From positions 1-22,122 of the forward strand of contig RDOA01000056.1 in assembly GCA_011364925.1 (NCBI GenBank): 22,122 nucleotides of DNA, given 5' to 3'. The first letter of the stretch is position 1. Every line of letters starts with the position of its first letter. The notes under the pieces are model-generated. The model had not been told where the DNA came from. It made no database searches and was given only the letters and a program-made list of their open reading frames with translations. Positions 4,506-16,834 of the stretch are shown here, one piece after another. This DNA is from Promethearchaeota archaeon. Lineage in GTDB: Archaea; Asgardarchaeota; Lokiarchaeia; Sigyniarchaeales; SOKP01. A program made the translations under genes and the position numbers.

Positions 4506-5867
4506 TTACTTATAAAATTCACATTCCTCAAGGATTTGGGAAATGTCTATTACCGGTAAGTCAGGTTTAGTTTGACTAGCGGTGAGATATAGATTGTTTT
4601 TACAAAAAACGCAAGCACTTACTAACATTTCTGCATCGGTTTCGATTGCTTCTTTTAGACGATTTTCGTTTATATTTTCCCAACAGGCAACAGTTTCATC
4701 TAATCTACTGCTAGCAATATCATTTGAGATTTCCCCATAGAGAGCCCGCACTCCTCCACCTGCACCACAACACCACGACATTTCTCTATTGTGTTTCATT
4801 TCGATTAACTTTACGCCTTCTATCATTTCTATAAGCTCTCGAGGTTCATCGTATACTCCACAATATCTCCCTAAATGGCAAGGATCGTGATAAGTAATTA
4901 TTAGTGGATCTTCTTTTGTGCGTTTAGTGTATCGGATTTTAAGACCGTTTTCTTTGGCATATTTAGAAACAAATTGAACCATATGAGTTATCTCGAATCC
5001 TAGATCACCTTTTATGAATTTTGGATATTCTGTCGTAAAAGTAGAAAAACAGCCTGCACAAGAAAAAACGATTTCTTTGACGCCTAATTCGCGAATCATA
5101 TCTACGTTGTAATGAGTTAATTGGACAGCATCATCCTCTAAACCTGTTCTAAATAATACTGAACCACAGCAATATTCATCAGGAAAAACTATGAAATTTA
5201 CGCCCATTTTATCTAATATTCTACAAGTTGCAGAACTTAGTTCATTATTTCTATAAGCAGATGTACAGCCTACGAAATAACCCACCAAGTGTTCTTCTAT
5301 ATCGCTTGGTTTTATTTCTCCAGAAGCGATTCTTCTCGAATGTTCTGCCCCCCGTTCATAAGCCATATGTCCTTCATCACAAGATTGAGTTTCACACCAA
5401 TTAAATCTATCAGTTCCGCTTTCGAGGAACGGATTTTTATTAGTATGGATGGACTTTTTAAGAACTTGTAATTTTTCTGGCATTACACCTTTCCTAACAG
5501 CAGTTCTTCTATATGTTTGGAAGACGTTTAATGTGTCTATACCCACGGGACATACCGTACGACAGTTACCACAAAGCATACACTGATATATAGCGTCTAT
5601 TATTTGATCCTTATCGAAATTTATTGCTCGTTTTTTTAATGATTTGAGTATTCTATTCCGACCTCCAGCGTAATCACGTTCAGCGTAGGTAGCATTATAA
5701 ACTCTACACACAAGGCGACAATATCCACACTGAACACAACGCTCGTAGTCTTCTTCTGCTTTAGAATCTGGTTCGACGAGATTTTTTTGGTCAGGAGCAA
5801 ACATGCCTGATACCGTAGGTCCAGAAGTCACTACTTCTTTTACATCTTCGGTTTCTTTTTCATACAT
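4506..5867 (-). CDS. Fe-S oxidoreductase, HdrD/GlpC/GlcF family (2x[4Fe-4S] + two CCG domains)
   Basis: CVQCGYCRLVC and CMLCGNCRTVCP; YFVGC..CCG..CAGC and YHDPCHLGR..CCGAGGG..CVFC. Confidence 0.9.
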   Translation of the reverse strand: MYEKETEDVKEVVTSGPTVSGMFAPDQKNLVEPDSKAEEDYERCVQCGYCRLVCRVYNATYAERDYAGGRNRILKSLKKRAINFDKDQIIDAIYQCMLCGNCRTVCPVGIDTLNVFQTYRRTAVRKGVMPEKLQVLKKSIHTNKNPFLESGTDRFNWCETQSCDEGHMAYERGAEHSRRIASGEIKPSDIEEHLVGYFVGCTSAYRNNELSSATCRILDKMGVNFIVFPDEYCCGSVLFRTGLEDDAVQLTHYNVDMIRELGVKEIVFSCAGCFSTFTTEYPKFIKGDLGFEITHMVQFVSKYAKENGLKIRYTKRTKEDPLIITYHDPCHLGRYCGVYDEPRELIEMIEGVKLIEMKHNREMSWCCGAGGGVRALYGEISNDIASSRLDETVACWENINENRLKEAIETDAEMLVSACVFCKNNLYLTASQTKPDLPVIDISQILEECEFYK

Positions 5868-5900: not shown

Positions 5901-7361
5901 TTAGGCTGTTTTGTAAAGGCGTTTTGCGATCCAGAAGAGTAATCCAAGACGCCAGGATCTCATCTTCGCTTTTGTTAATCTGTACGAGTTCAGCAAATCT
6001 TCAGGATCAAGGTTATACTTCAAATTCCGCAAATAACTTGCTCTTTCAGAATTATATTTGAGAAAATATTGAGTGTTAACTACTCCTATGGTATAAAGAC
6101 TATCATTATTTCTGTAGTTGAAATTTGTTATGTCGTTAAATACTGCTTTAATCCCAAAAAATTCGCGCGAGTTAGCAATATCTGAAAGTCCAAATAATTT
6201 AATTCTATTCTCACCTTTAGTTCCTGACATTAGATAAAAAGCGTTTCGATATCTCTGTCGAGAAGTCTTTTTAATGTAGAAATCATAAAAATCTTCTAAT
6301 TTATCATCAGAGACCAAATATTCTTGAAAAATTAAATTTTGGCACCATCGTCCGACATTAACTTCTGTATCAGCTAAATCGCGCCACTTTTCTTTCAGAT
6401 ACCATCCTTCTACTGCTAATCCGTCTAAATTTGAAGCTACGTCCTTAGCAAAGGCTAGACATTGAGAAGTTACACTTGGGGTGTCTGAATAAACCGCGTA
6501 AACAAAAAACGCTCTCGCAGGATAAGTCCAATGAGCATATTTCTCGAAATTCTTATCTGAGAGCGAGAGAAAGAATGGTTTACTTGCGTCATTATCTTTC
6601 AAGGTTCGGAAAAACTTAACTGCCATTTCATATGTATGAAACCCATATCCAACATACTCCATCGATTTATTAAGCAAAGTAATTTCCATCTCAACCTCTG
6701 CAACAGCTCCGAGTATCCCGAAAGAACTAATAATGTCGTTCAACTTCAAGTCTCCTTGAGAATCTCTTGTAATCTTTTCAACAGAACCATCTGGTTTTAC
6801 AAAAACGAGAGAGCGTATTGCATTTTTCATTGGGCCATTTCTCAAAACTCCAACACCCACTTTACCAGATGTAACGATAAATCCTCCAACAATACTAGCT
6901 TTATAGCTAGTAGGATAACATTTTGGGCCCAATCCATAATCGAGAAGAGTTTCAATCAGCCTTAACCAAGAAATTCCAGCGTCACATCTAACAGTCATAT
7001 TTTTTGGATCGATATCGTGAATTTTGTCCATTCTTCGCATATCAATTACAACACCACCTCTAGTTGGTGTAGATGCAGAATAGCAAGAACTTCCTGCTCC
7101 TCGAATAGTCATAGGAATCGAAGATTCATAGCATTTTTTCATCAACTTTGAAAGTTCATCTGTGCTACCTGGACGAATAACATGCGTTGCTTTATATTCT
7201 TCTTTAAATTTATAGTGGTATTTAGGAAGCAAGGAAAGATCTCCTGTAGTAGCTTCAATATCGTAGGGATCAGTACTCACATGGGTAGGAGGAATGAATT
7301 CCTTAACTTCTTCAGTAAAATTTCCTTCTTCCCTAACTTTACTCGCATTCAATTTTTTCAC
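5901..7361 (-). CDS. FAD-binding oxidoreductase (GlcD/VAO-PCMH family), substrate unknown
   Basis: RPGSTDEL, IRGAGSS, GGVVIDM, DAGI, SIVGG motifs and C-terminal LDPEDLLN; GTG start. Confidence 0.85.
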   Translation of the reverse strand: MKKLNASKVREEGNFTEEVKEFIPPTHVSTDPYDIEATTGDLSLLPKYHYKFKEEYKATHVIRPGSTDELSKLMKKCYESSIPMTIRGAGSSCYSASTPTRGGVVIDMRRMDKIHDIDPKNMTVRCDAGISWLRLIETLLDYGLGPKCYPTSYKASIVGGFIVTSGKVGVGVLRNGPMKNAIRSLVFVKPDGSVEKITRDSQGDLKLNDIISSFGILGAVAEVEMEITLLNKSMEYVGYGFHTYEMAVKFFRTLKDNDASKPFFLSLSDKNFEKYAHWTYPARAFFVYAVYSDTPSVTSQCLAFAKDVASNLDGLAVEGWYLKEKWRDLADTEVNVGRWCQNLIFQEYLVSDDKLEDFYDFYIKKTSRQRYRNAFYLMSGTKGENRIKLFGLSDIANSREFFGIKAVFNDITNFNYRNNDSLYTIGVVNTQYFLKYNSERASYLRNLKYNLDPEDLLNSYRLTKAKMRSWRLGLLFWIAKRLYKTA

Positions 7362-7369
7362 ACCTCATA

Positions 7370-7933
7370 TTATAATAAAAGTCCTAACAAAAAGGCACCC
7401 CACCACCCAGCTAAAGTAAAATATCCCGTTAATCTTGCAAGATTTCGCTGCCCTGAAGCACCAAACAAGAAACTTGCGATACCAGTTATCAAACCCGTCG
7501 CTCCAAGCATTATATGAAGCGTATGAATCAACCCAGAGTAATTAAGAACTTCCGTAGGAGTTAAGAAAATAAGTAAAATAATGTTAATTATTGTAACTAT
7601 CAGCGCTCCTCCAGTGAAATATCCATGCCATAACACATACTTAGGTTCGTCATATAAAACAAGTATCGTTCCTATTGACAATGAGATTAATGCCGGTAAG
7701 CCTAAAATTAATCCAATATGCCAACTATTACTAGCACTATCAATTATCTCGATACCATTTGAAATCATATCAGACACGACTATGAATGTCATCACAGCTC
7801 CAAATAAAGTTATCCAAATCCATATCAAACTTTTCATTTTGCCTTGTCTTCTGAAGTTCAATGTTAATATTAGCGCAATGAATGCTACAACAGCTACAAC
7901 AGAAAGGATTATTTGTAAATCCGGTGTTAGCAT
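7370..7933 (-). CDS. Multi-pass membrane protein with His residues; C-terminal part DUF420/CtaM-like
   Basis: About 6 hydrophobic helices; WHGY, HTLHIMLG and terminal ARLTG...WW...LLG pattern reminiscent of DUF420; lies immediately downstream of heme O synthase. Confidence 0.45.
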   Translation of the reverse strand: MLTPDLQIILSVVAVVAFIALILTLNFRRQGKMKSLIWIWITLFGAVMTFIVVSDMISNGIEIIDSASNSWHIGLILGLPALISLSIGTILVLYDEPKYVLWHGYFTGGALIVTIINIILLIFLTPTEVLNYSGLIHTLHIMLGATGLITGIASFLFGASGQRNLARLTGYFTLAGWWGAFLLGLLL

Positions 7934-8004: not shown

Positions 8005-8904
8005 TTAATTAAAAACCACCCCTAAAAATACCAAAAAAAATCCAAGAATCATGTAGAGCGAAGCAATCTTAAAAATTATGAATGTAAGTTTATTTGAGGG
8101 CTTTATTAAACTTTTTACGACTAAGATTATAATTATTGCGCAACATAATCCCCAGATAATTCTAATTATTGCGTGAGCACCTAGTAATCTCGCCACTTCA
8201 TAAAGGGCGAGACTACTTATAAAGGCACCTATCGCTATAACTCGCATGGTTTGGGTCTCTGAACTCACTATTGGCCACATCGGTACGCCAGCATCTTTGT
8301 AACCTTTATAATTTTTTGGTATTAACGCTATCGTTAGGATATGAACGGGAATCCATGCTAAAACAAAGATGAGTAGTAAAAAACCAATCCAATCTAAATT
8401 TCCCAATATTGCGATCCTACCTGCCCAAGCGGGAAGTCCGCCAGCTATGCCTCCAAAAATTATGCTAAATTTAGTTCTTCTTTTTAATAAAACGGTATAC
8501 ACTACAACATCAAAGAAAAAACCGAGGAATATAATTAGCGTGGTTAACCAATTGAGCGTTAAAGATGAGAGAAGGATCCCAAGAATTGTAAGAATTATCC
8601 CAGTTATTAAAACTGTTAAAGGTGAGACTTTACCACTGGGTAAAGGACGATTCTTTGTCCGTTCCATAATCGCATCAATGTCTTTATCGATATACATATT
8701 TAAAACCGTAGTTCCTGATATTGCAAAATACAACGATAAGAACAAGAAAAGTAATTCAAGCCAATTAAATACCGTAATTTTAGTAAATGCCGTGATGAAA
8801 TAGGCCATTACTCCAGTATAGACCAAAAGGATAGTTTGTCGAGCTTTGATAAGTTCTCCAAAAAGAAAGGTGATATCTTTTAACTTCAAAACGATCCCCA
8901 TCAA
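8005..8904 (-). CDS. cyoE: Protoheme IX farnesyltransferase (heme O synthase), UbiA family
   Basis: ELIKAR, NMYIDKDIDAIMERTKNRPLPSG, VYTVLLKRRT, GGIAGGLP, WIPVH and YKDAGVPMWP motifs. Confidence 0.9.
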   Translation of the reverse strand: MMGIVLKLKDITFLFGELIKARQTILLVYTGVMAYFITAFTKITVFNWLELLFLFLSLYFAISGTTVLNMYIDKDIDAIMERTKNRPLPSGKVSPLTVLITGIILTILGILLSSLTLNWLTTLIIFLGFFFDVVVYTVLLKRRTKFSIIFGGIAGGLPAWAGRIAILGNLDWIGFLLLIFVLAWIPVHILTIALIPKNYKGYKDAGVPMWPIVSSETQTMRVIAIGAFISSLALYEVARLLGAHAIIRIIWGLCCAIIIILVVKSLIKPSNKLTFIIFKIASLYMILGFFLVFLGVVFN

Positions 8905-8922: not shown

Positions 8923-10452
8923 TTACTTAATTGGTTCAATTGGTAGTAATTGCTTAGATTCAAAAGGAGGTTTCTTAAGATTTTTCGCTAAAGCAAAAAG
9001 CCCGACTACAAAACCAACTAAGAGAACCCATATCCCCACAAAAGTAATGTCTAGAAATATGAAACCATATTCCCATGCTAACGGTCGAACCATATATATC
9101 ATAGCGAAAGGGAACGTGAGATTGACTCCTATAAAAAATGTCCAACCAAGAAACACTTTTAATTTCCCTTCAACTTTGAAATAATCAATAGCGTGTAGCA
9201 TTAATATTACCGCAATCGATACTGCCAATTGATGCCAATGCCCTACGTTAAATCCATATTCAAGCTCTACATACGAATGTAATCTGTATACACTATCAGT
9301 TGTGAGCCCAGCATAAATTTGAGGAAAAACTATAAATTGTGCCACTAAAAATAAATAATAATAGGATAACTTTACAGGTTCCTTAAAAAGATTTTTAAGT
9401 TTTGCGCTACGGGATGCTGAATTATAGCTTTCTTTCATGCGCGTTTTAATAGTATTTTTCAGACCGATTATAGCCATAGTTAAAGTACCGAGAATTAATA
9501 TACCAGCTCCGACCCAAATAACGTAATGGTTCAGAACCCATGCCCCATAAGATAAGGTTATAATCCCAATTGGAGTCATGAGGAGCACAAATTTATAGAG
9601 GTTACCGCTCATTTTACTTGTACGAAAGCCGACTAACATCACCATTGCTGCTGACTGAGCAAGTTGGATGTGTAAGTGTCCTATTATCATGTTTTCGACA
9701 ATGTCATGTTCTGTTCCAAATGTGATACCGTGTCTAACAATGGCTTCGGCAAGGAATGCGACAGGGTCTCGATTGAGTCCCCAAATAGTACTTGTAAAGT
9801 TCTCTATTGCTGCCAAAGCGCCATAAATTGTCGAAACAAGAATACATATTGCCAAGACAACAAGATTAAAATACTCTAAATTTAATCCACGGAAGGTTGA
9901 TCCATCGGGATTGGATTTTGGAAATCTCCCTTTCACTGGCCAAGCTGATATTACAAATATTACTCCCCCAATAAAACAAAGAAATAATCCAAAAATGAAA
10001 AGCTCATGAAATAACCGAATTCGAGTATAAGCAAAAATCATACCATTAATTCCTACAAGAAAAGCACTAGGCACTAAAAGGACTTTTAGAGTTGGTAGCC
10101 ATTTTTTGCGAATTGGATAATGTTCTAAAATCCAAAATGTGTTTGCTACTAAAAATGGTATAGCTAAAGAATGATATATCATAACTAGGCGAGCTGTCCT
10201 TGAGATAACATCGTCACTAAGGACAAAAGGAAAGATAGGTTGACCCCCAATCAACTCTGTTAATGGTTCTGAAAAGGTAAAATACCAAAGTACTTGAAGA
10301 AAAACGAAGACAAACATCATATAATGAATTTTTTTAAAACTCGGCTTTGGTTCAACTCTCGTCGTTTGAGTTTCCATTGTGGTACTAAGTTTAGTTTGGA
10401 TTGGAACTGTTTCTATTTCTATTTTTAACACCTTTTCTTTTCTATTGATCAA
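8923..10452 (-). CDS. 12-TM His-rich membrane protein, divergent heme-copper-oxidase subunit I-like fold
   Basis: Twelve hydrophobic segments; His in helix II (YH94S), helix VI (GH259LH261) and helix X (GH405WH407), plus H149 and H309; adjacent to cyoE. True start may be a downstream Met. Confidence 0.55.
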   Translation of the reverse strand: MINRKEKVLKIEIETVPIQTKLSTTMETQTTRVEPKPSFKKIHYMMFVFVFLQVLWYFTFSEPLTELIGGQPIFPFVLSDDVISRTARLVMIYHSLAIPFLVANTFWILEHYPIRKKWLPTLKVLLVPSAFLVGINGMIFAYTRIRLFHELFIFGLFLCFIGGVIFVISAWPVKGRFPKSNPDGSTFRGLNLEYFNLVVLAICILVSTIYGALAAIENFTSTIWGLNRDPVAFLAEAIVRHGITFGTEHDIVENMIIGHLHIQLAQSAAMVMLVGFRTSKMSGNLYKFVLLMTPIGIITLSYGAWVLNHYVIWVGAGILILGTLTMAIIGLKNTIKTRMKESYNSASRSAKLKNLFKEPVKLSYYYLFLVAQFIVFPQIYAGLTTDSVYRLHSYVELEYGFNVGHWHQLAVSIAVILMLHAIDYFKVEGKLKVFLGWTFFIGVNLTFPFAMIYMVRPLAWEYGFIFLDITFVGIWVLLVGFVVGLFALAKNLKKPPFESKQLLPIEPIK

Positions 10453-10457
10453 AAATA

Positions 10458-10988
10458 TTATTTATTTTTTCCAATTTCAGTATTATTTTTGCGCTTTTTC
10501 TGTCCAAACAATGGTAGAATGAAAAGCAATCCGAAAACAATAATCGTCGAGACAATTGTAGGAATGATTGCTTGCGAAAATGTTCCATGGGGGTTGTAAT
10601 AAGGTTGTCCTACGTAAAAATGCTCAGTTAAGCTTCCTCCAAGGGAACAATAAGCTGTTACAGTAATGTTTGCTTTATTTCCCGCAGGGAAGTTAAAAAT
10701 GTAATGGTTTATATTATGAGTAGGTTGTTCAGTTTTAGGGTATGAATAATTAGGAGCTTCAGGAGGATCGGATGGATTGCTACTATTAACCCAGATTTCA
10801 ATTAAATTTATATAATGATAACTAGGATCGGTTACTCCATGAGTTATCTTCACACTGAGACTTTGGGTGTCAAGATTATACTCCATATCCATCGTAATTG
10901 GACTGTGTGCTCTAACTTGAAGGTTGTTTGAATTTATAACGAAAATCATTAAGATCAACAAAATATAAAAAATGTTTTTTTTAGCCAT
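10458..10988 (-). CDS. Exported, C-terminally anchored superoxide-reductase-like (Ig-fold) metal-binding protein
   Basis: Signal peptide ending VRA|HSP; H28, H50, H58 (HYINLIEI) and C114 (AYCSLGG) mirror the SOR H..H..H..C ligands; C-terminal TM helix followed by a KKRK tail. Confidence 0.5.
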   Translation of the reverse strand: MAKKNIFYILLILMIFVINSNNLQVRAHSPITMDMEYNLDTQSLSVKITHGVTDPSYHYINLIEIWVNSSNPSDPPEAPNYSYPKTEQPTHNINHYIFNFPAGNKANITVTAYCSLGGSLTEHFYVGQPYYNPHGTFSQAIIPTIVSTIIVFGLLFILPLFGQKKRKNNTEIGKNK

Positions 10989-11259: not shown

Positions 11260-12489
11260 TTACTTTCCATTCCTATAGAATGAGAGCATGATTAAAAGGA
11301 TTAAAGCTACTATTAGTGGTGTTAAAATCCCAAATAATAGAGTTATTTGTTCAGTACTATTGCTATAAATTTGCCCAGAAATTGGTGCTCCAATAGCCAC
11401 TCCCGCTACTAATAAGGCATAAAATGTCCCTGTTGCAATTCCACTCTCAGAACTTTTCGTTTTCGTTTTAACAAAACCAGCAGAAGAAGGGAAAATTAAT
11501 CCGTGACCTAACCCAAGTAAAATCATGCCAATCATAGGTATAGGGACATCGAACGAGATCATAAATACACCAAACGCTGCTGCAACAATTATCAATCCGA
11601 TTAGCATAACCTTCACATGACCTAGTTTATCGCTCAAAATACCTGCTGGATAATGTATAATTATAGAAAATATAACCATTATGCTTAAGATCATTCCAAT
11701 TTGTCCTATTGTATAAGTTGCGTGCTCTAACATCAGTGTATATACTGTAGTCACGATTCCCATGTTAAACATCATTGCAAATATTGAAAAATATGGACCT
11801 ATCATGGATTTACGCAAGACAGTTTTCCGAAATATTTTAAGCTCTTCCATAAAATTTAACTTATTTTTCGAATGTTGATAAACTTTTGGAAGAAAGAATG
11901 TTGAAAATGTCATTATAAATAGTATAATAGCTAAAGTAAAAAACATGATATTCACTCCAATGATCTGGGACACCAATCCCCCCAGCAAGAATCCAATTAA
12001 ATTTGAAAACCCAATGGATATCCCATATAAAGCCATCCCTCTCCCACTTCGTCTTTGGGAAGTTGCATCGGAAATATAAGCCATAGTAGCTGGACCTCCA
12101 AATCCACCCCCTATTCCATGAACAATTCTCCCAAATAAAAGGAATACTGGATCTAGAGCTATCGAATATAAAAGCAATGATAATCCATCTAACATTACAC
12201 CAACGCTAATTAAAGTTTTTCGACCTATTTTATCAACTAATCTTCCAAAAACAATATTTGAGGGAATATGAACCATGGAATAAACTCCAACTATAAAGCC
12301 AATCATTACAATCGAAGCACCTAGATTTTCAGCGTAAGTTGCAATTACAGGTATAGCTGCGTTACTATCGAAATTTACTATAAAAGATAGAGAAAGCGCT
12401 AAAAACAAGTATTTTCTTTTTATTATTCGTGACTTCTGAATTCCTATTTTCTGTTTGTTAACAGTATCTTGAGTTTCGATTTCTCTCAC
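11260..12489 (-). CDS. MFS transporter
   Basis: 12 TM helices; motif A GRLVDKIGRK and its repeat GILSDKLG; GRIVHGIGGG. Confidence 0.92.
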   Translation of the reverse strand: MREIETQDTVNKQKIGIQKSRIIKRKYLFLALSLSFIVNFDSNAAIPVIATYAENLGASIVMIGFIVGVYSMVHIPSNIVFGRLVDKIGRKTLISVGVMLDGLSLLLYSIALDPVFLLFGRIVHGIGGGFGGPATMAYISDATSQRRSGRGMALYGISIGFSNLIGFLLGGLVSQIIGVNIMFFTLAIILFIMTFSTFFLPKVYQHSKNKLNFMEELKIFRKTVLRKSMIGPYFSIFAMMFNMGIVTTVYTLMLEHATYTIGQIGMILSIMVIFSIIIHYPAGILSDKLGHVKVMLIGLIIVAAAFGVFMISFDVPIPMIGMILLGLGHGLIFPSSAGFVKTKTKSSESGIATGTFYALLVAGVAIGAPISGQIYSNSTEQITLLFGILTPLIVALILLIMLSFYRNGK

Positions 12490-12605: not shown

Positions 12606-12932
12606 ATGAGTCTTAAAAGTCAATTAGAAAAAGAACATAAAACAGTTAAAACAATGATTCAAATGTATTGTAAGAGGTGTCATAACACCGATTCTGTTTT
12701 GTGCCAAGATTGCTCTGATCTCTTTGAATACGCTGAAGAACGCCTAAAAAGCTGTCGTTTCGGTGAAAGTAAACCCACATGTGATACTTGCATAATTCAT
12801 TGTTATAAACCAGAAATGAGGGAAAAAATTAAAATAGTTATGCGGTACGCTGGACCTAGGATGATATACACCCATCCTATTATGGGTATACAACACTTAT
12901 TAAAAAAATTGAAAAAAAAGAGAGAATATTGA
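12606..12932 (+). CDS. YgbA / nitrous-oxide-stimulated promoter family Cys-rich protein
   Basis: EHKTVKTMIQMYC..H..LCQDC..YAEERL..C.FGESKPTCDTC.IHCYKPEMRE..MRYAGPRMIYTHP matches the family pattern. Confidence 0.85.
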   Translation: MSLKSQLEKEHKTVKTMIQMYCKRCHNTDSVLCQDCSDLFEYAEERLKSCRFGESKPTCDTCIIHCYKPEMREKIKIVMRYAGPRMIYTHPIMGIQHLLKKLKKKREY

Positions 12933-14791: not shown

Positions 14792-16834
14792 TCAAATCTG
14801 ATTACCACTTACACTTAACTTCTTAAGAGATTTTAATTCGTTTAGTGAAGTGGGTAGAGCTTTTAGACAATTTCCATTTAAATTTAGTTCTTTTAAGGAT
14901 GTTAAACTACTAATTTCTTCAGGAATGCGTTCAATCTCGTTCTCACATAAATCTAAGGTTACCAGCGATCGGAGAGATCCTATCGATTTTGGTACGTATG
15001 CAATTAAATTATCGTTAACCTTCAAAATTTTAAGCGAATTTAGATTTCTAATAAAGTTAGGGAACTTACTTATTTCATTTTGAGATAAAATTAAGTGCTC
15101 AAGAGAAGGTAAACAAAAAGTTGAATTAGGAATATTCTTTAATTTATTATGAGAAAAATCGAGAGTTTTTAACGTTTGTATAGAAGTAATACATAATGGG
15201 AAGCATTTAAATCTGTTCCAACTAATATTAAGGCACTCAAGCGATTTAAGAAGTCTAATCGAATGTGGGAGCGATGCTAACGCATTTTCCTCTAACTGTA
15301 AAACTTTAAGAGAAAAAAGAGACCCTATACCATCTGGAATTTCTCTTAGCAAATTTTTGTTCAGGTTAAGTGTTTTAAGTGAATGAAGCAAACTGATTGA
15401 TTCTGGCAGCTTTTCTAGCTTATTAGAATTTATTGTGAGTAACTGTAGTAGTTTTAGCTGTCCTATAGAATGTGGAATGTATTTTAATTGGTTTTTGCTT
15501 ATATTCAAAGTTTTTAATAAGATCAACCGTCCGATAGATTTTGGGAGCGACACTAGATTATTACTCTCCAAGTTTAAAGTTCTCAGAGAGGTAAGTCTTC
15601 CTATATAAGTTGGGAGCTCAGCAAATTTATTATTTGATAAATCTAATTTTCTCAACGATCGAAGGCGCTTAATTGAGTTTGGCAAATTTGTAAGATTGTT
15701 TCCTTTAATGTTTAAAACTTTTAACTCTTTAAAAGTGCCAATTGATTCAGGAAGCGAATAAAGATTGCAATTCGTTAGCTCTAAAGAACGAAGTGATCTA
15801 AAATAGCATACGAATTCTGGAAGAGTTATTAATGGTTTACCCTCTATTTGTAATTCAATAACTTCCCCCTCACTCAATTTATAATCTATTTCTTTATACT
15901 TCCTTTTTAAAAAGGTGATTAGGATGAAGTTTCTATAAATATTTGATAATTTTAAAATTGAAAAATTTTCTAACGAGTCTTTTTTCGTGATAAGATTTCT
16001 AACTGATCTTACGAATTTTAACTCATCAATTTTTTCGATTTCGGATATTATAGCTTTTTTTGCAGCCGTATTGTTTAAACTCTCTAACGCTTTTAATAAT
16101 ACCAATGAGTTGGTAAAGGTTCTATCGTCATTAACCGTCCAATTCAATGGAAAAAACTTAAGATCGTTCAATTCTTTTAAGTGTCTAATCCCTAGTAAAT
16201 CAGAAGTGTCTTCTAAATACTCTCGGTTATGCCAATCTATCCCCAATTCTTCTACATTTGATAAGTCTAAACCAACAACTGATCCCCTGTCAACTTCATA
16301 GTTAAGCTTTTTAAATTTCTTTTTCAATGAAAAAATAGTTATATGGTTAAGTAAAATATCTGCAAGATTTCTCTGTGAAAGAGATTCAATTTCACCATTA
16401 AGTATAAGAGGTGATAAATTTTCCTTAATTGGTTCAATCTGTATCTTTTTTATTTCATTTAACAATACTGCTTTTATTTTATCATCGTTAATTTCTTCTA
16501 AAGAATTAATTATGCATGCTAAGCAATTGTAAGACGATTCGAACTTAAGACCCCACAAAAAGGGAGATAAGGCTTTATCTAAAAATTTCTTTTTAATTAC
16601 TCTTGCTGCAGCATATCTCAGATCCTCATTTGGATCGGAGAGAAATATATTTTCTAAAAGTTTGAATATTTTATTATTGTGAATATCGATTTTATTTAAA
16701 ATATTAATAGACTTCTTTCGAATTTCATCGTTATCAATAATCTCTATTAATGTGATTAATGAATCTACCGCTTTTGATTCATCTATTGCTTCATTTCTAA
16801 ATCGTTCATAGATTTTACTGGGAGATAAAATCAT
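14792..16834 (-). CDS. HEAT-repeat + leucine-rich-repeat protein
   Basis: N-terminal HEAT-like LSDPNEDLRYAAARVI; 15 consecutive 23-aa LxxLxLxxNxLxxLPxxIxxL repeats. Confidence 0.92.
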   Translation of the reverse strand: MILSPSKIYERFRNEAIDESKAVDSLITLIEIIDNDEIRKKSINILNKIDIHNNKIFKLLENIFLSDPNEDLRYAAARVIKKKFLDKALSPFLWGLKFESSYNCLACIINSLEEINDDKIKAVLLNEIKKIQIEPIKENLSPLILNGEIESLSQRNLADILLNHITIFSLKKKFKKLNYEVDRGSVVGLDLSNVEELGIDWHNREYLEDTSDLLGIRHLKELNDLKFFPLNWTVNDDRTFTNSLVLLKALESLNNTAAKKAIISEIEKIDELKFVRSVRNLITKKDSLENFSILKLSNIYRNFILITFLKRKYKEIDYKLSEGEVIELQIEGKPLITLPEFVCYFRSLRSLELTNCNLYSLPESIGTFKELKVLNIKGNNLTNLPNSIKRLRSLRKLDLSNNKFAELPTYIGRLTSLRTLNLESNNLVSLPKSIGRLILLKTLNISKNQLKYIPHSIGQLKLLQLLTINSNKLEKLPESISLLHSLKTLNLNKNLLREIPDGIGSLFSLKVLQLEENALASLPHSIRLLKSLECLNISWNRFKCFPLCITSIQTLKTLDFSHNKLKNIPNSTFCLPSLEHLILSQNEISKFPNFIRNLNSLKILKVNDNLIAYVPKSIGSLRSLVTLDLCENEIERIPEEISSLTSLKELNLNGNCLKALPTSLNELKSLKKLSVSGNQI
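14795..15830 (-). repeat. Tandem 69-bp-period coding repeat (15 LRR units)
   Basis: Counted 15 LxxLxLxxN cores from LRSLELTNC to LKKLSVSGN; degenerate at DNA level. Confidence 0.85.

Follow-up and report, generated by a model that had tools for sequence, protein, structure and literature searches.

A tight row of co-directional genes, with intergenic gaps of 5-71 nucleotides, lies on the minus strand of a 22,122-nucleotide stretch (positions 1-22,122 of contig RDOA01000056.1, assembly GCA_011364925.1) of a Promethearchaeota archaeon, the whole of which we refer to as the window. The second gene of the row encodes a predicted membrane protein, here called HCOL, that shares the 12-helix fold of the haem-copper oxidases (HCOs) and carries a conserved set of seven His residues. 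The open reading frame (ORF) runs from a TTG at 10452 and has 509 codons; the likely start is the GTG at 10431, which gives the N-terminus MLKIEIE as in homologues and has a purine-rich stretch ahead of it. With this start the protein would have 502 residues, and the residue numbers would probably drop by 7. The numbering used throughout is that of the initial annotation of the window, i.e. the 509-residue ORF from TTG 10452, in which the codons of H94, H149, H259, H261, H309, H405 and H407 were checked at their positions. HCOL and the residues on which the argument turns are as follows.

8923..10452, minus strand: HCOL, 12-helix HCO-fold protein, 509 amino acids from TTG 10452; ORF with no Pfam or NCBIfam match
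10171..10173, minus strand: codon of H94, predicted ligand of the low-spin haem from helix II; matched in the alignment to NorB H53, which binds haem b from helix II
10006..10008, minus strand: codon of H149, at the outer side in the opening turn of helix IV, conserved and paired with H309 by the internal repeat
9670..9678, minus strand: H259-L-H261, helix VI, one His being a likely non-haem metal ligand (low-confidence alignments)
9523..9528, minus strand: H309-Y310, helix VII/VIII boundary, counterpart of the canonical His-His pair (NHYVIWVGAG aligned with NorB GHHYYWIGAP)
9232..9240, minus strand: H405-W-H407, helix X, H405 predicted high-spin and H407 predicted low-spin haem ligand; align with NorB H326 and H328

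Searches of the PDB with the HCOL sequence and profile returned noise only, and the COX1 family (PF00115) matched neither HCOL at E <=0.01 nor ten distant relatives at E <=0.1; Pfam and NCBIfam scans of these ten relatives likewise gave nothing.

The AlphaFold2 model of HCOL (pLDDT 84.4, pTM 0.85) consists of 12 long helices, with H94 inside helix II (residues 85-111), H149 in the first turn of helix IV (146-170) on the outer side, H259 and H261 inside helix VI (251-279), H309 as the first residue of helix VIII (309-342), and H405 and H407 inside helix X (392-424). The predicted topology is N-in/C-in, as in the HCOs, with 22 Lys and Arg residues inside and 5 outside, and this distribution of positive charge would put the His cluster into the membrane's outer half, where oxidases have theirs. 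In a full-library VIA structural search the top ten matches are all subunit I chains of HCOs or nitric oxide reductases (NORs; Z 14.6-22.0, 378-417 residues aligned), in the order CcoN (3mk7_A, Z 22.0), NorB (4xyd_A, Z 20.8) and then A- and B-type oxidases and qNORs down to Z 14.6, compared with Z 10.4 for the best unrelated chain. Foldseek lists only COX1, CcoN and NOR chains among its top 50, at modest E-values. The arrangement of 12 helices in three four-helix arcs that characterises HCO subunit I is thus found in HCOL both in the VIA matches and in the internal repeat described below. The closest structural match, CcoN of the C-family cbb3 oxidases (root-mean-square deviation 3.7 Å, 396/466 residues aligned), has its 12 helices in the same order, the same N-in orientation, a helix II His, a helix X HxH and no Tyr at the +4 position from the helix VI His. 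However, CcoN is about 10% identical to HCOL, has both a His-His pair and a Tyr in helix VII, is partnered by cytochrome c subunits where HCOL has a superoxide reductase (SOR)-like protein, and needs no haem O.

Profile comparison extends this likeness to the level of sequence. An HCO profile of 44 sequences (NorB and three FixN of a rhizobial plasmid, Pyrobaculum oxidases and qNOR, Asgard A-type oxidases and further NorBs) was aligned by hhalign with an HCOL family profile of 70 sequences, over 395 columns and in full register (score 51.0, probability 80%, E 1.4e-5), whereas the reversed profile scored 22.9 and eight block-shuffled profiles 18.6-29.4, all at E 0.01 or worse. Because the alignment outscores both kinds of control, HCOL is, as judged from sequence profiles, a true but very remote relative of the HCO superfamily. 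Significance was reached only with the 44-sequence HCO and 70-sequence family profiles; a smaller HCO profile of 7 sequences gave an insignificant, out-of-register alignment in which helix X fell onto helix II, and a wide HCO search returned almost only close NorB sequences and was of little use.

Read on NorB numbering, the profile alignment supplies His residues at both positions that hold the low-spin haem of HCOs, the helix II His (H94) and the second His of the helix X HxH (H407), and also at the high-spin haem position, the first His of the same HxH (H405). The helix X motif itself is VGHWH in HCOL and VGHFH in the HCOs, and E398 lies seven residues ahead of H405, like the Asp of HDT...VGHFH in A-type oxidases. 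The three-His CuB/FeB site, which combines one helix VI His with the helix VII pair, is matched in part: H309 aligns with NorB H237, but Y310 occupies the column of NorB H238, so that H309 alone represents the pair. For helix VI, the spacing between H259 and H309 is 50 residues, compared with 51 for the NorB equivalents, and GHLHIQ of HCOL is comparable to GHPEVY of A-type oxidases, a comparison by which H261 would occupy the place of the D-channel Glu and Q263 the place of the cross-linked Tyr. Which ligand helix VI provides is nevertheless ambiguous, because helices V-VIII, when aligned alone, match best (weakly, probability 17%) the third, haem-binding HCO repeat with its HD...GHxH motif and not the second. 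Since the side chains of the two His in an HxH point to opposite faces of their helix, only one of H259 and H261 would, on geometry, reach a site next to the high-spin haem. The remaining one, possibly joined by H149, would face the pore that canonical oxidases fill with side chains, where it could relay protons or bind a second metal or a third haem. H149 and E150 themselves lie within 1-2 columns of the EFLE loop of NorB in the profile alignment.

These residues are conserved throughout the family. A search of 5.8 billion proteins returned 119 HCOL relatives, whose named sources are all Asgard or unclassified archaea (Loki, Thor, Hod, Heimdall and Harpocratesius) and which include DSAG12_01126 of the cultured Prometheoarchaeum. 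Some 150 more distant ones came from an exhaustive profile search. An alignment of 41 sequences shows no exception at H94, H149, H259, H405 or H407 and very few at H261 and H309. Among 148 family members of at least 380 amino acids, reaching down to about 22% identity, H94 is kept in 142, H149 in 141, H259 in 147, H261 in 142, H309 in 141, and H405 and H407 in 145 each, most of the exceptions (for H94 all of them) being gaps. R88, R390 and E398 are each retained by at least 132 of the 148, and E236 by 131. Position 310 behaves differently, with Tyr in 101/148, nearly invariant within the Loki/Thor clade, and otherwise Lys, Phe, Val, Leu or Gln; a His-His pair at 309-310 persists in a single Heimdall relative (L022).

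The seven His also follow an internal three-fold repeat. When the family profile was cut into three four-helix segments and these were compared with one another by hhalign, helices V-VIII aligned with IX-XII (probability 96%, E 3e-9), pairing H259 with H405 and H261 with H407; helices I-IV aligned with IX-XII (95%, E 7e-8), pairing H94 with H407; and helices I-IV aligned with V-VIII (82%), pairing H149 with H309. As a feature of the sequences, the pattern is far beyond chance. Such symmetry lends itself to a reading in which HCOL serves as an electron conduit, with three haems or in some other non-catalytic form; H149 and one of the pair H259 and H261 would bind a third cofactor in the pore, and the chemistry would take place elsewhere, for example in the SOR-like partner. 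The His of the helix VI HxH that on geometry has no place beside the high-spin haem, and the match of helices V-VIII to a haem-binding repeat, both agree with this. The third haem, however, is argued for from symmetry only, H309 and a helix VI His stand at canonical metal-ligand positions, and in HCOs both haems lie at equal depth, so that the fold provides no membrane-spanning wire; we consider a conduit unlikely. A second paralogue, of 439-480 amino acids, is encoded directly upstream of the SOR-like gene in some Loki and Thor genomes (L010:2956-4275 (+); P0120, P0127). In this paralogue H94, H149, H259, H405 and H407 are kept, H261 is replaced by Arg and H309 by Asn, and it looks like a haem-binding copy lacking the extra site. 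In the window's own genome HCOL is single-copy.

The initial annotation, made from the window alone, had anticipated much of this. The 12-helix ORF and the placing of every named His agree with the AlphaFold2 model and the codons, on the minus strand; the three-fold His pattern reappears as the hhalign repeat; the conservation check that it suggested for the seven His finds each of them kept in at least 141 of 148 relatives; and assignment to a divergent branch of the HCO/NOR superfamily is upheld by the fold and profile matches. The cross-linked Tyr motif is indeed absent, with Q263 at its position. The further claim that the helix VII His-His pair is missing holds for the second His, replaced by Y310 and variable elsewhere, but not for the first, which the alignment shows to be retained as H309.

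The row in which HCOL lies contains, in addition, the following genes.

10458..10988, minus strand: exported, membrane-anchored SOR-like beta-sandwich protein, 176 amino acids, candidate subunit II analogue (from its model and Foldseek)
8005..8904, minus strand: haem O synthase-like UbiA prenyltransferase, 299 amino acids (TIGR01473, cyoE_ctaB equivalog)
7370..7933, minus strand: six-helix membrane protein, H72, H103, H137 and H140 invariant in 19-22 orthologues, candidate electron carrier or assembly factor
5901..7361, minus strand: FAD_binding_4 (GlcD-like) flavoprotein, 486 amino acids (PF01565, E 3e-30)
4506..5867, minus strand: protein with two [4Fe-4S] clusters and CCG domains (HdrD/GlcF/DsrK-like), 453 amino acids (PF02754, E 9e-33, and Fer4 domains)

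The order SOR-like protein, HCOL, synthase, 4-His protein, flavin adenine dinucleotide (FAD) enzyme and CCG protein is maintained in loci from Loki, Thor, Hermod and Hod genomes, the exceptions being a few loci with the synthase after the CCG gene and Promethearchaeum, in which the synthase lies beside a second HCOL copy. This single-contig 4.3-Mb Loki genome (G145, Promethearchaeum syntrophicum MK-D1) has HCOL copies at C1:642284-643762 and C1:2725544-2726956, one in a dehydrogenase operon without a synthase and the other beside the genome's only haem O synthase (2727320-2728153).

The initial annotation had named HCOL as the likely client of the adjacent haem O synthase, and this is supported from several sides. 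The neighbouring UbiA protein scores 195.5 bits against TIGR01473, short of the trusted cut-off of 210.3 but by far its best family, other prenyltransferase families reaching at most 54 bits. No COX1 is found in its own genome (3.9 Mb, 100% complete by markers). Of 400 Asgard genomes, 63 encode HCOL, 72 haem O synthase and 24 COX1, which is confined to Heimdall-type families. The 376 genomes without COX1 divide into 46 with both HCOL and synthase, 2 with HCOL only, 3 with synthase only and 325 with neither, so that 46 of the 49 synthase carriers have HCOL, although related genomes are not independent in these counts. Within the window's own genus the same 12 of 41 other genomes carry both genes, as does the window's genome, and a distribution so patchy and yet so perfectly matched within one genus is hard to explain without a link between the two proteins. 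By hand count, HCOL and synthase lie on one contig within 5 kb in 50 of the 63 genomes, and in genomes that have both a canonical oxidase and HCOL a separate synthase copy stands beside each. We know of no use of haem O outside HCO-type enzymes.

Delta-aminolevulinate dehydratase (ALAD) and porphobilinogen deaminase are absent from the window's genome, scored 100% complete, and ALAD is absent from five further HCOL carriers, one of them a single-contig genome. On this gene content the organism appears unable to make any tetrapyrrole, so that haem would have to be scavenged and then farnesylated. The missing pathway, the strict coupling to haem O synthase and a transporter gene of the MFS family nearby could also be accommodated if HCOL served haem handling in a haem auxotroph, receiving, storing or chaperoning scavenged haem and haem O in the membrane. 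A store of haem O, though, needs a client, and no other client was found; the four extra invariant His together with R88, R390 and E398 resemble an active site, and the conserved link to an FAD/Fe-S dehydrogenase suggests electron flow. We regard this explanation as very improbable.

The remaining partners suggest how electrons might reach HCOL and what stands in for the usual second subunit. The model of the SOR-like protein (pLDDT 81) has a helix at residues 3-23, seven strands between 32 and 125 and a helix at 137-169. Its eight Foldseek matches at E <=0.001 are all superoxide reductases or SOR homologues (top E 3e-4) and PF01880 matches weakly; in VIA, generic FnIII/Ig folds reach Z about 10 and SOR Z 8.8, so that Foldseek alone singles out SOR. 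H50, H58, C114 and Q88 are invariant in 19-20 orthologues, whereas H28, which follows the predicted signal helix, is Asp, Ala or Thr in three of them. Of the SOR iron site the protein thus keeps two His and the Cys and has lost two of the five iron ligands, so that for a conduit with its chemistry placed in this protein the retention of H50, H58 and C114 is favourable and the loss of the other ligands is not. We infer that the SOR-like protein is a redox or structural stand-in for subunit II.

The FAD enzyme, syntenic in the Loki, Thor, Hermod and Hod loci, is a distant relative of GlcD (88.6 bits, cut-off 568), and the best NCBIfam matches of the CCG protein are TfrB, LdhH, GlpC, GlcF, TmcB, HmcF and DsrK. 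Of these, GlpC, GlcF, TmcB, HmcF and DsrK have membrane cytochromes b as docking partners, an analogy on which the 4-His protein may be a membrane electron carrier that replaces the cytochrome b of the usual CCG pairing; Pfam scans of all its orthologues gave noise only, and an atlas search offered weak leads to DUF420 and cytochrome b561. On a Thermoproteota contig (L082:5233-10599) an HCOL relative lies 2.6 kb upstream of genes for EtfB, EtfA, a FAD_binding_4 dehydrogenase, a CCG protein and a NarI-like cytochrome b.

Upstream of the operon the neighbourhood is more loosely linked.

11260-12489, minus strand: MFS transporter
12606-12932, plus strand: YgbA_NO family protein

Most Loki and Thor loci have both genes in this upstream position. 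Farther upstream, at 14792-16834 on the minus strand, lies a gene for a 680-amino-acid protein made up mostly of leucine-rich repeats behind an N-terminal HEAT-like region.

By the residues that mark the O2 reductases and the cNOR/qNOR enzymes, HCOL falls in neither group. O2 reductases carry a Tyr cross-linked to the helix VI His; the corresponding +4 position in HCOL is Q263 (Gln in 108/148, Met in 26/148), and the 148 relatives show no conserved Tyr in helix VII like that of the C-family, Y310 being confined to one clade. The cNOR/qNOR site combines three His with a Glu at the same +4 position, where HCOL has Q263 and two canonical His. NorB and qNOR nevertheless share with HCOL, besides the fold, the resemblance of GHHYYWIGAP to NHYVIWVGAG, the lack of a cross-linked Tyr and acidic residues on the outer side, although the sole in-register profile alignment used a profile mixing NorB, FixN and A-type sequences. 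HCOL differs from them in the loss of the second helix VII His, the replacement of the FeB Glu by Gln or Met, an extra helix VI His two residues on, the additional invariant H149 and its other partner proteins. Within the HCOs, an enzyme that lacks the active-site Tyr is by the published criterion a NOR and not an O2 reductase, and the loss of one active-site His has a precedent in gNOR (Murali et al. 2024, PMC11214002). Like HCOL, gNOR has replaced one otherwise invariant active-site His and lacks the Tyr; unlike HCOL, it is a recognisable B-family COX1 relative that has a cupredoxin as subunit II and Asp as the substituting residue (PMC11214002, which makes no mention of Asgard or Loki archaea).

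HCOL might instead be an O2 reductase that scavenges trace oxygen in nominal anaerobes, in which Y310 would act as the redox-active Tyr at a new site, much as the C-family uses a Tyr of helix VII for this. The near-invariance of Y310 in the Loki/Thor clade would suit this, the dedicated haem O synthase recalls the bo3-type oxidases, oxygen-defence genes flank the operon in P. syntrophicum MK-D1, and Heimdall genomes with canonical oxidases keep HCOL as well, each with its own synthase copy. Set against these are the Lys, Phe, Val, Leu or Gln at position 310 outside that clade, the absence of a Tyr at the helix VI +4 position, the reduction of the canonical metal His to two, and a published analysis that takes active-site Tyr loss to exclude O2 reduction within the HCOs (PMC11214002). 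Such an O2 scavenger using Y310 is, in our estimation, quite unlikely.

The surroundings of the more distant relatives bear on the choice of substrate. In Pyrobaculum oguniense the HCOL relative lies between qNOR and NarG, as it does in a Pyrobaculum-type genome of 2,222,430 bp, while in a third such genome it stands beside qNOR, a haem O synthase fragment and a NosZ-like gene and has an in-frame stop. The Pyrobaculum-type relatives (L029:4990-13192; L076; L080) are 26% identical, and tblastn of plasmids with one of them gave no match. In Promethearchaeum the operon adjoins genes for a flavodiiron protein and a rubredoxin-reductase-like protein. On a further, bolder reading HCOL would be a near-symmetric, early-type HCO relative, with a helix X-type HxH in helix VI and a third cofactor site, performing a new chemistry such as the reduction of N2O or another N-oxide; it could then be the missing N2O reductase of NosZ-less denitrifying Pyrobaculum, working on scavenged haem in the Asgard archaea. 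We rate this as improbable. NnrS (PF05940), a haem- and copper-containing 12-helix protein of denitrifiers, resembles HCOL in being His-rich and multi-helical and in its NO-related context, and had been raised at the outset as a family into which HCOL might fall; it was rejected, as HCOL has no PF05940 match, NnrS is absent in the genomes tested, and hhalign against two NnrS sequences gave E 0.7.

Other relatives are dispersed more widely. Some bacterial ones (P0134, P0194 and P0206, the last at L071:7001-9358) are fused at the C-terminus to an FGE-sulfatase domain or PD40 beta-propellers, and the FGE-sulfatase fusion has 4 kb upstream a haem O synthase-like UbiA gene 41% identical to that of the window. 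An atlas of protein clusters holds unnamed sister clusters in Chloroflexota, Thermoproteota and Nitrososphaerota, one of them auto-named 'Cytochrome oxidase subunit I profile domain-containing'; the HCO resemblance is thus flagged automatically but not studied.

The reading that we prefer, and to which we give a roughly even chance of being right, is that HCOL is the catalytic-type subunit of an undescribed, very divergent, haem O-dependent member of the HCO superfamily, a non-pumping terminal reductase of NO or O2 fed by a cytoplasmic dehydrogenase. On the alignment a low-spin haem would be held between H94 of helix II and H407 of helix X, and a high-spin haem, probably haem O, would be bound by H405. 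Beside the latter a non-haem metal would be held by two canonical His, H309 and either H259 or H261, the second helix VII His having apparently given way to Tyr and the cross-linked Tyr being missing from its canonical position. The haems would receive electrons by way of the 4-His membrane protein from the FAD and Fe-S/CCG dehydrogenase in the cytoplasm, and a small oxidant, NO being favoured and O2 the alternative, would be reduced in the outer half of the membrane. The purpose would be detoxification or electron disposal and not proton-pumping respiration, with the exported SOR-like protein in place of subunit II and scavenged haem b farnesylated by the adjacent synthase. The missing Tyr points to NO reduction, as do, though weakly, the Pyrobaculum and Promethearchaeum contexts.

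Several observations weigh against this proposal of a catalytic terminal reductase. The position that holds the FeB-type Glu is Gln or Met in HCOL, and NorB H186 is paired with H259 in one alignment and with H249 in another, both of low confidence. Where a qNOR gene adjoins that of the HCOL relative, a second, redundant NOR is unlikely, and in the Loki/Thor clade Tyr 310 could still support O2 chemistry. HCOs normally receive their electrons from the outer side of the membrane and the FAD/CCG pair is cytoplasmic; the route proposed through the 4-His protein is drawn solely by analogy with CCG-protein/cytochrome b pairs. YgbA_NO, considered as an obligate partner, was rejected in this role: it is present in 108 of the 400 Asgard genomes and is not exclusive to HCOL carriers, occurring within the window's genus in 10 of the 12 other carriers (and in the window's own genome) as compared with 9 of 29 non-carriers.

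Heimdall-type lineages alone among the Asgard archaea have been credited with terminal oxidases (10.1101/2025.11.07.685452; PMC6737245), and work on Asgard oxygen metabolism treats only the canonical A-type oxidases of these lineages (10.1101/2025.11.07.685452). In the literature searched no description of the HCOL family was found, and a proteomics paper on the cultured Loki strain does not mention the locus. Loki- and Thor-type archaea, P. syntrophicum MK-D1 included, are treated as oxidase-free anaerobes, yet they have an HCO-fold protein that is invisible to annotation pipelines although provided with a dedicated haem O synthase and a dehydrogenase. Archaea counted as oxidase-free therefore probably carry an undescribed haem enzyme, and haem auxotrophs still invest in haem O chemistry, which is relevant to the ways in which eukaryotes' archaeal relatives deal with O2 or NO. 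For the HCO superfamily, HCOL adds a branch well outside the families catalogued so far, and its three-fold repeat, still detectable in sequence, may help to reconstruct the origin of the oxidase fold. As the operon is present in the genome of a cultured strain, these questions are directly testable.

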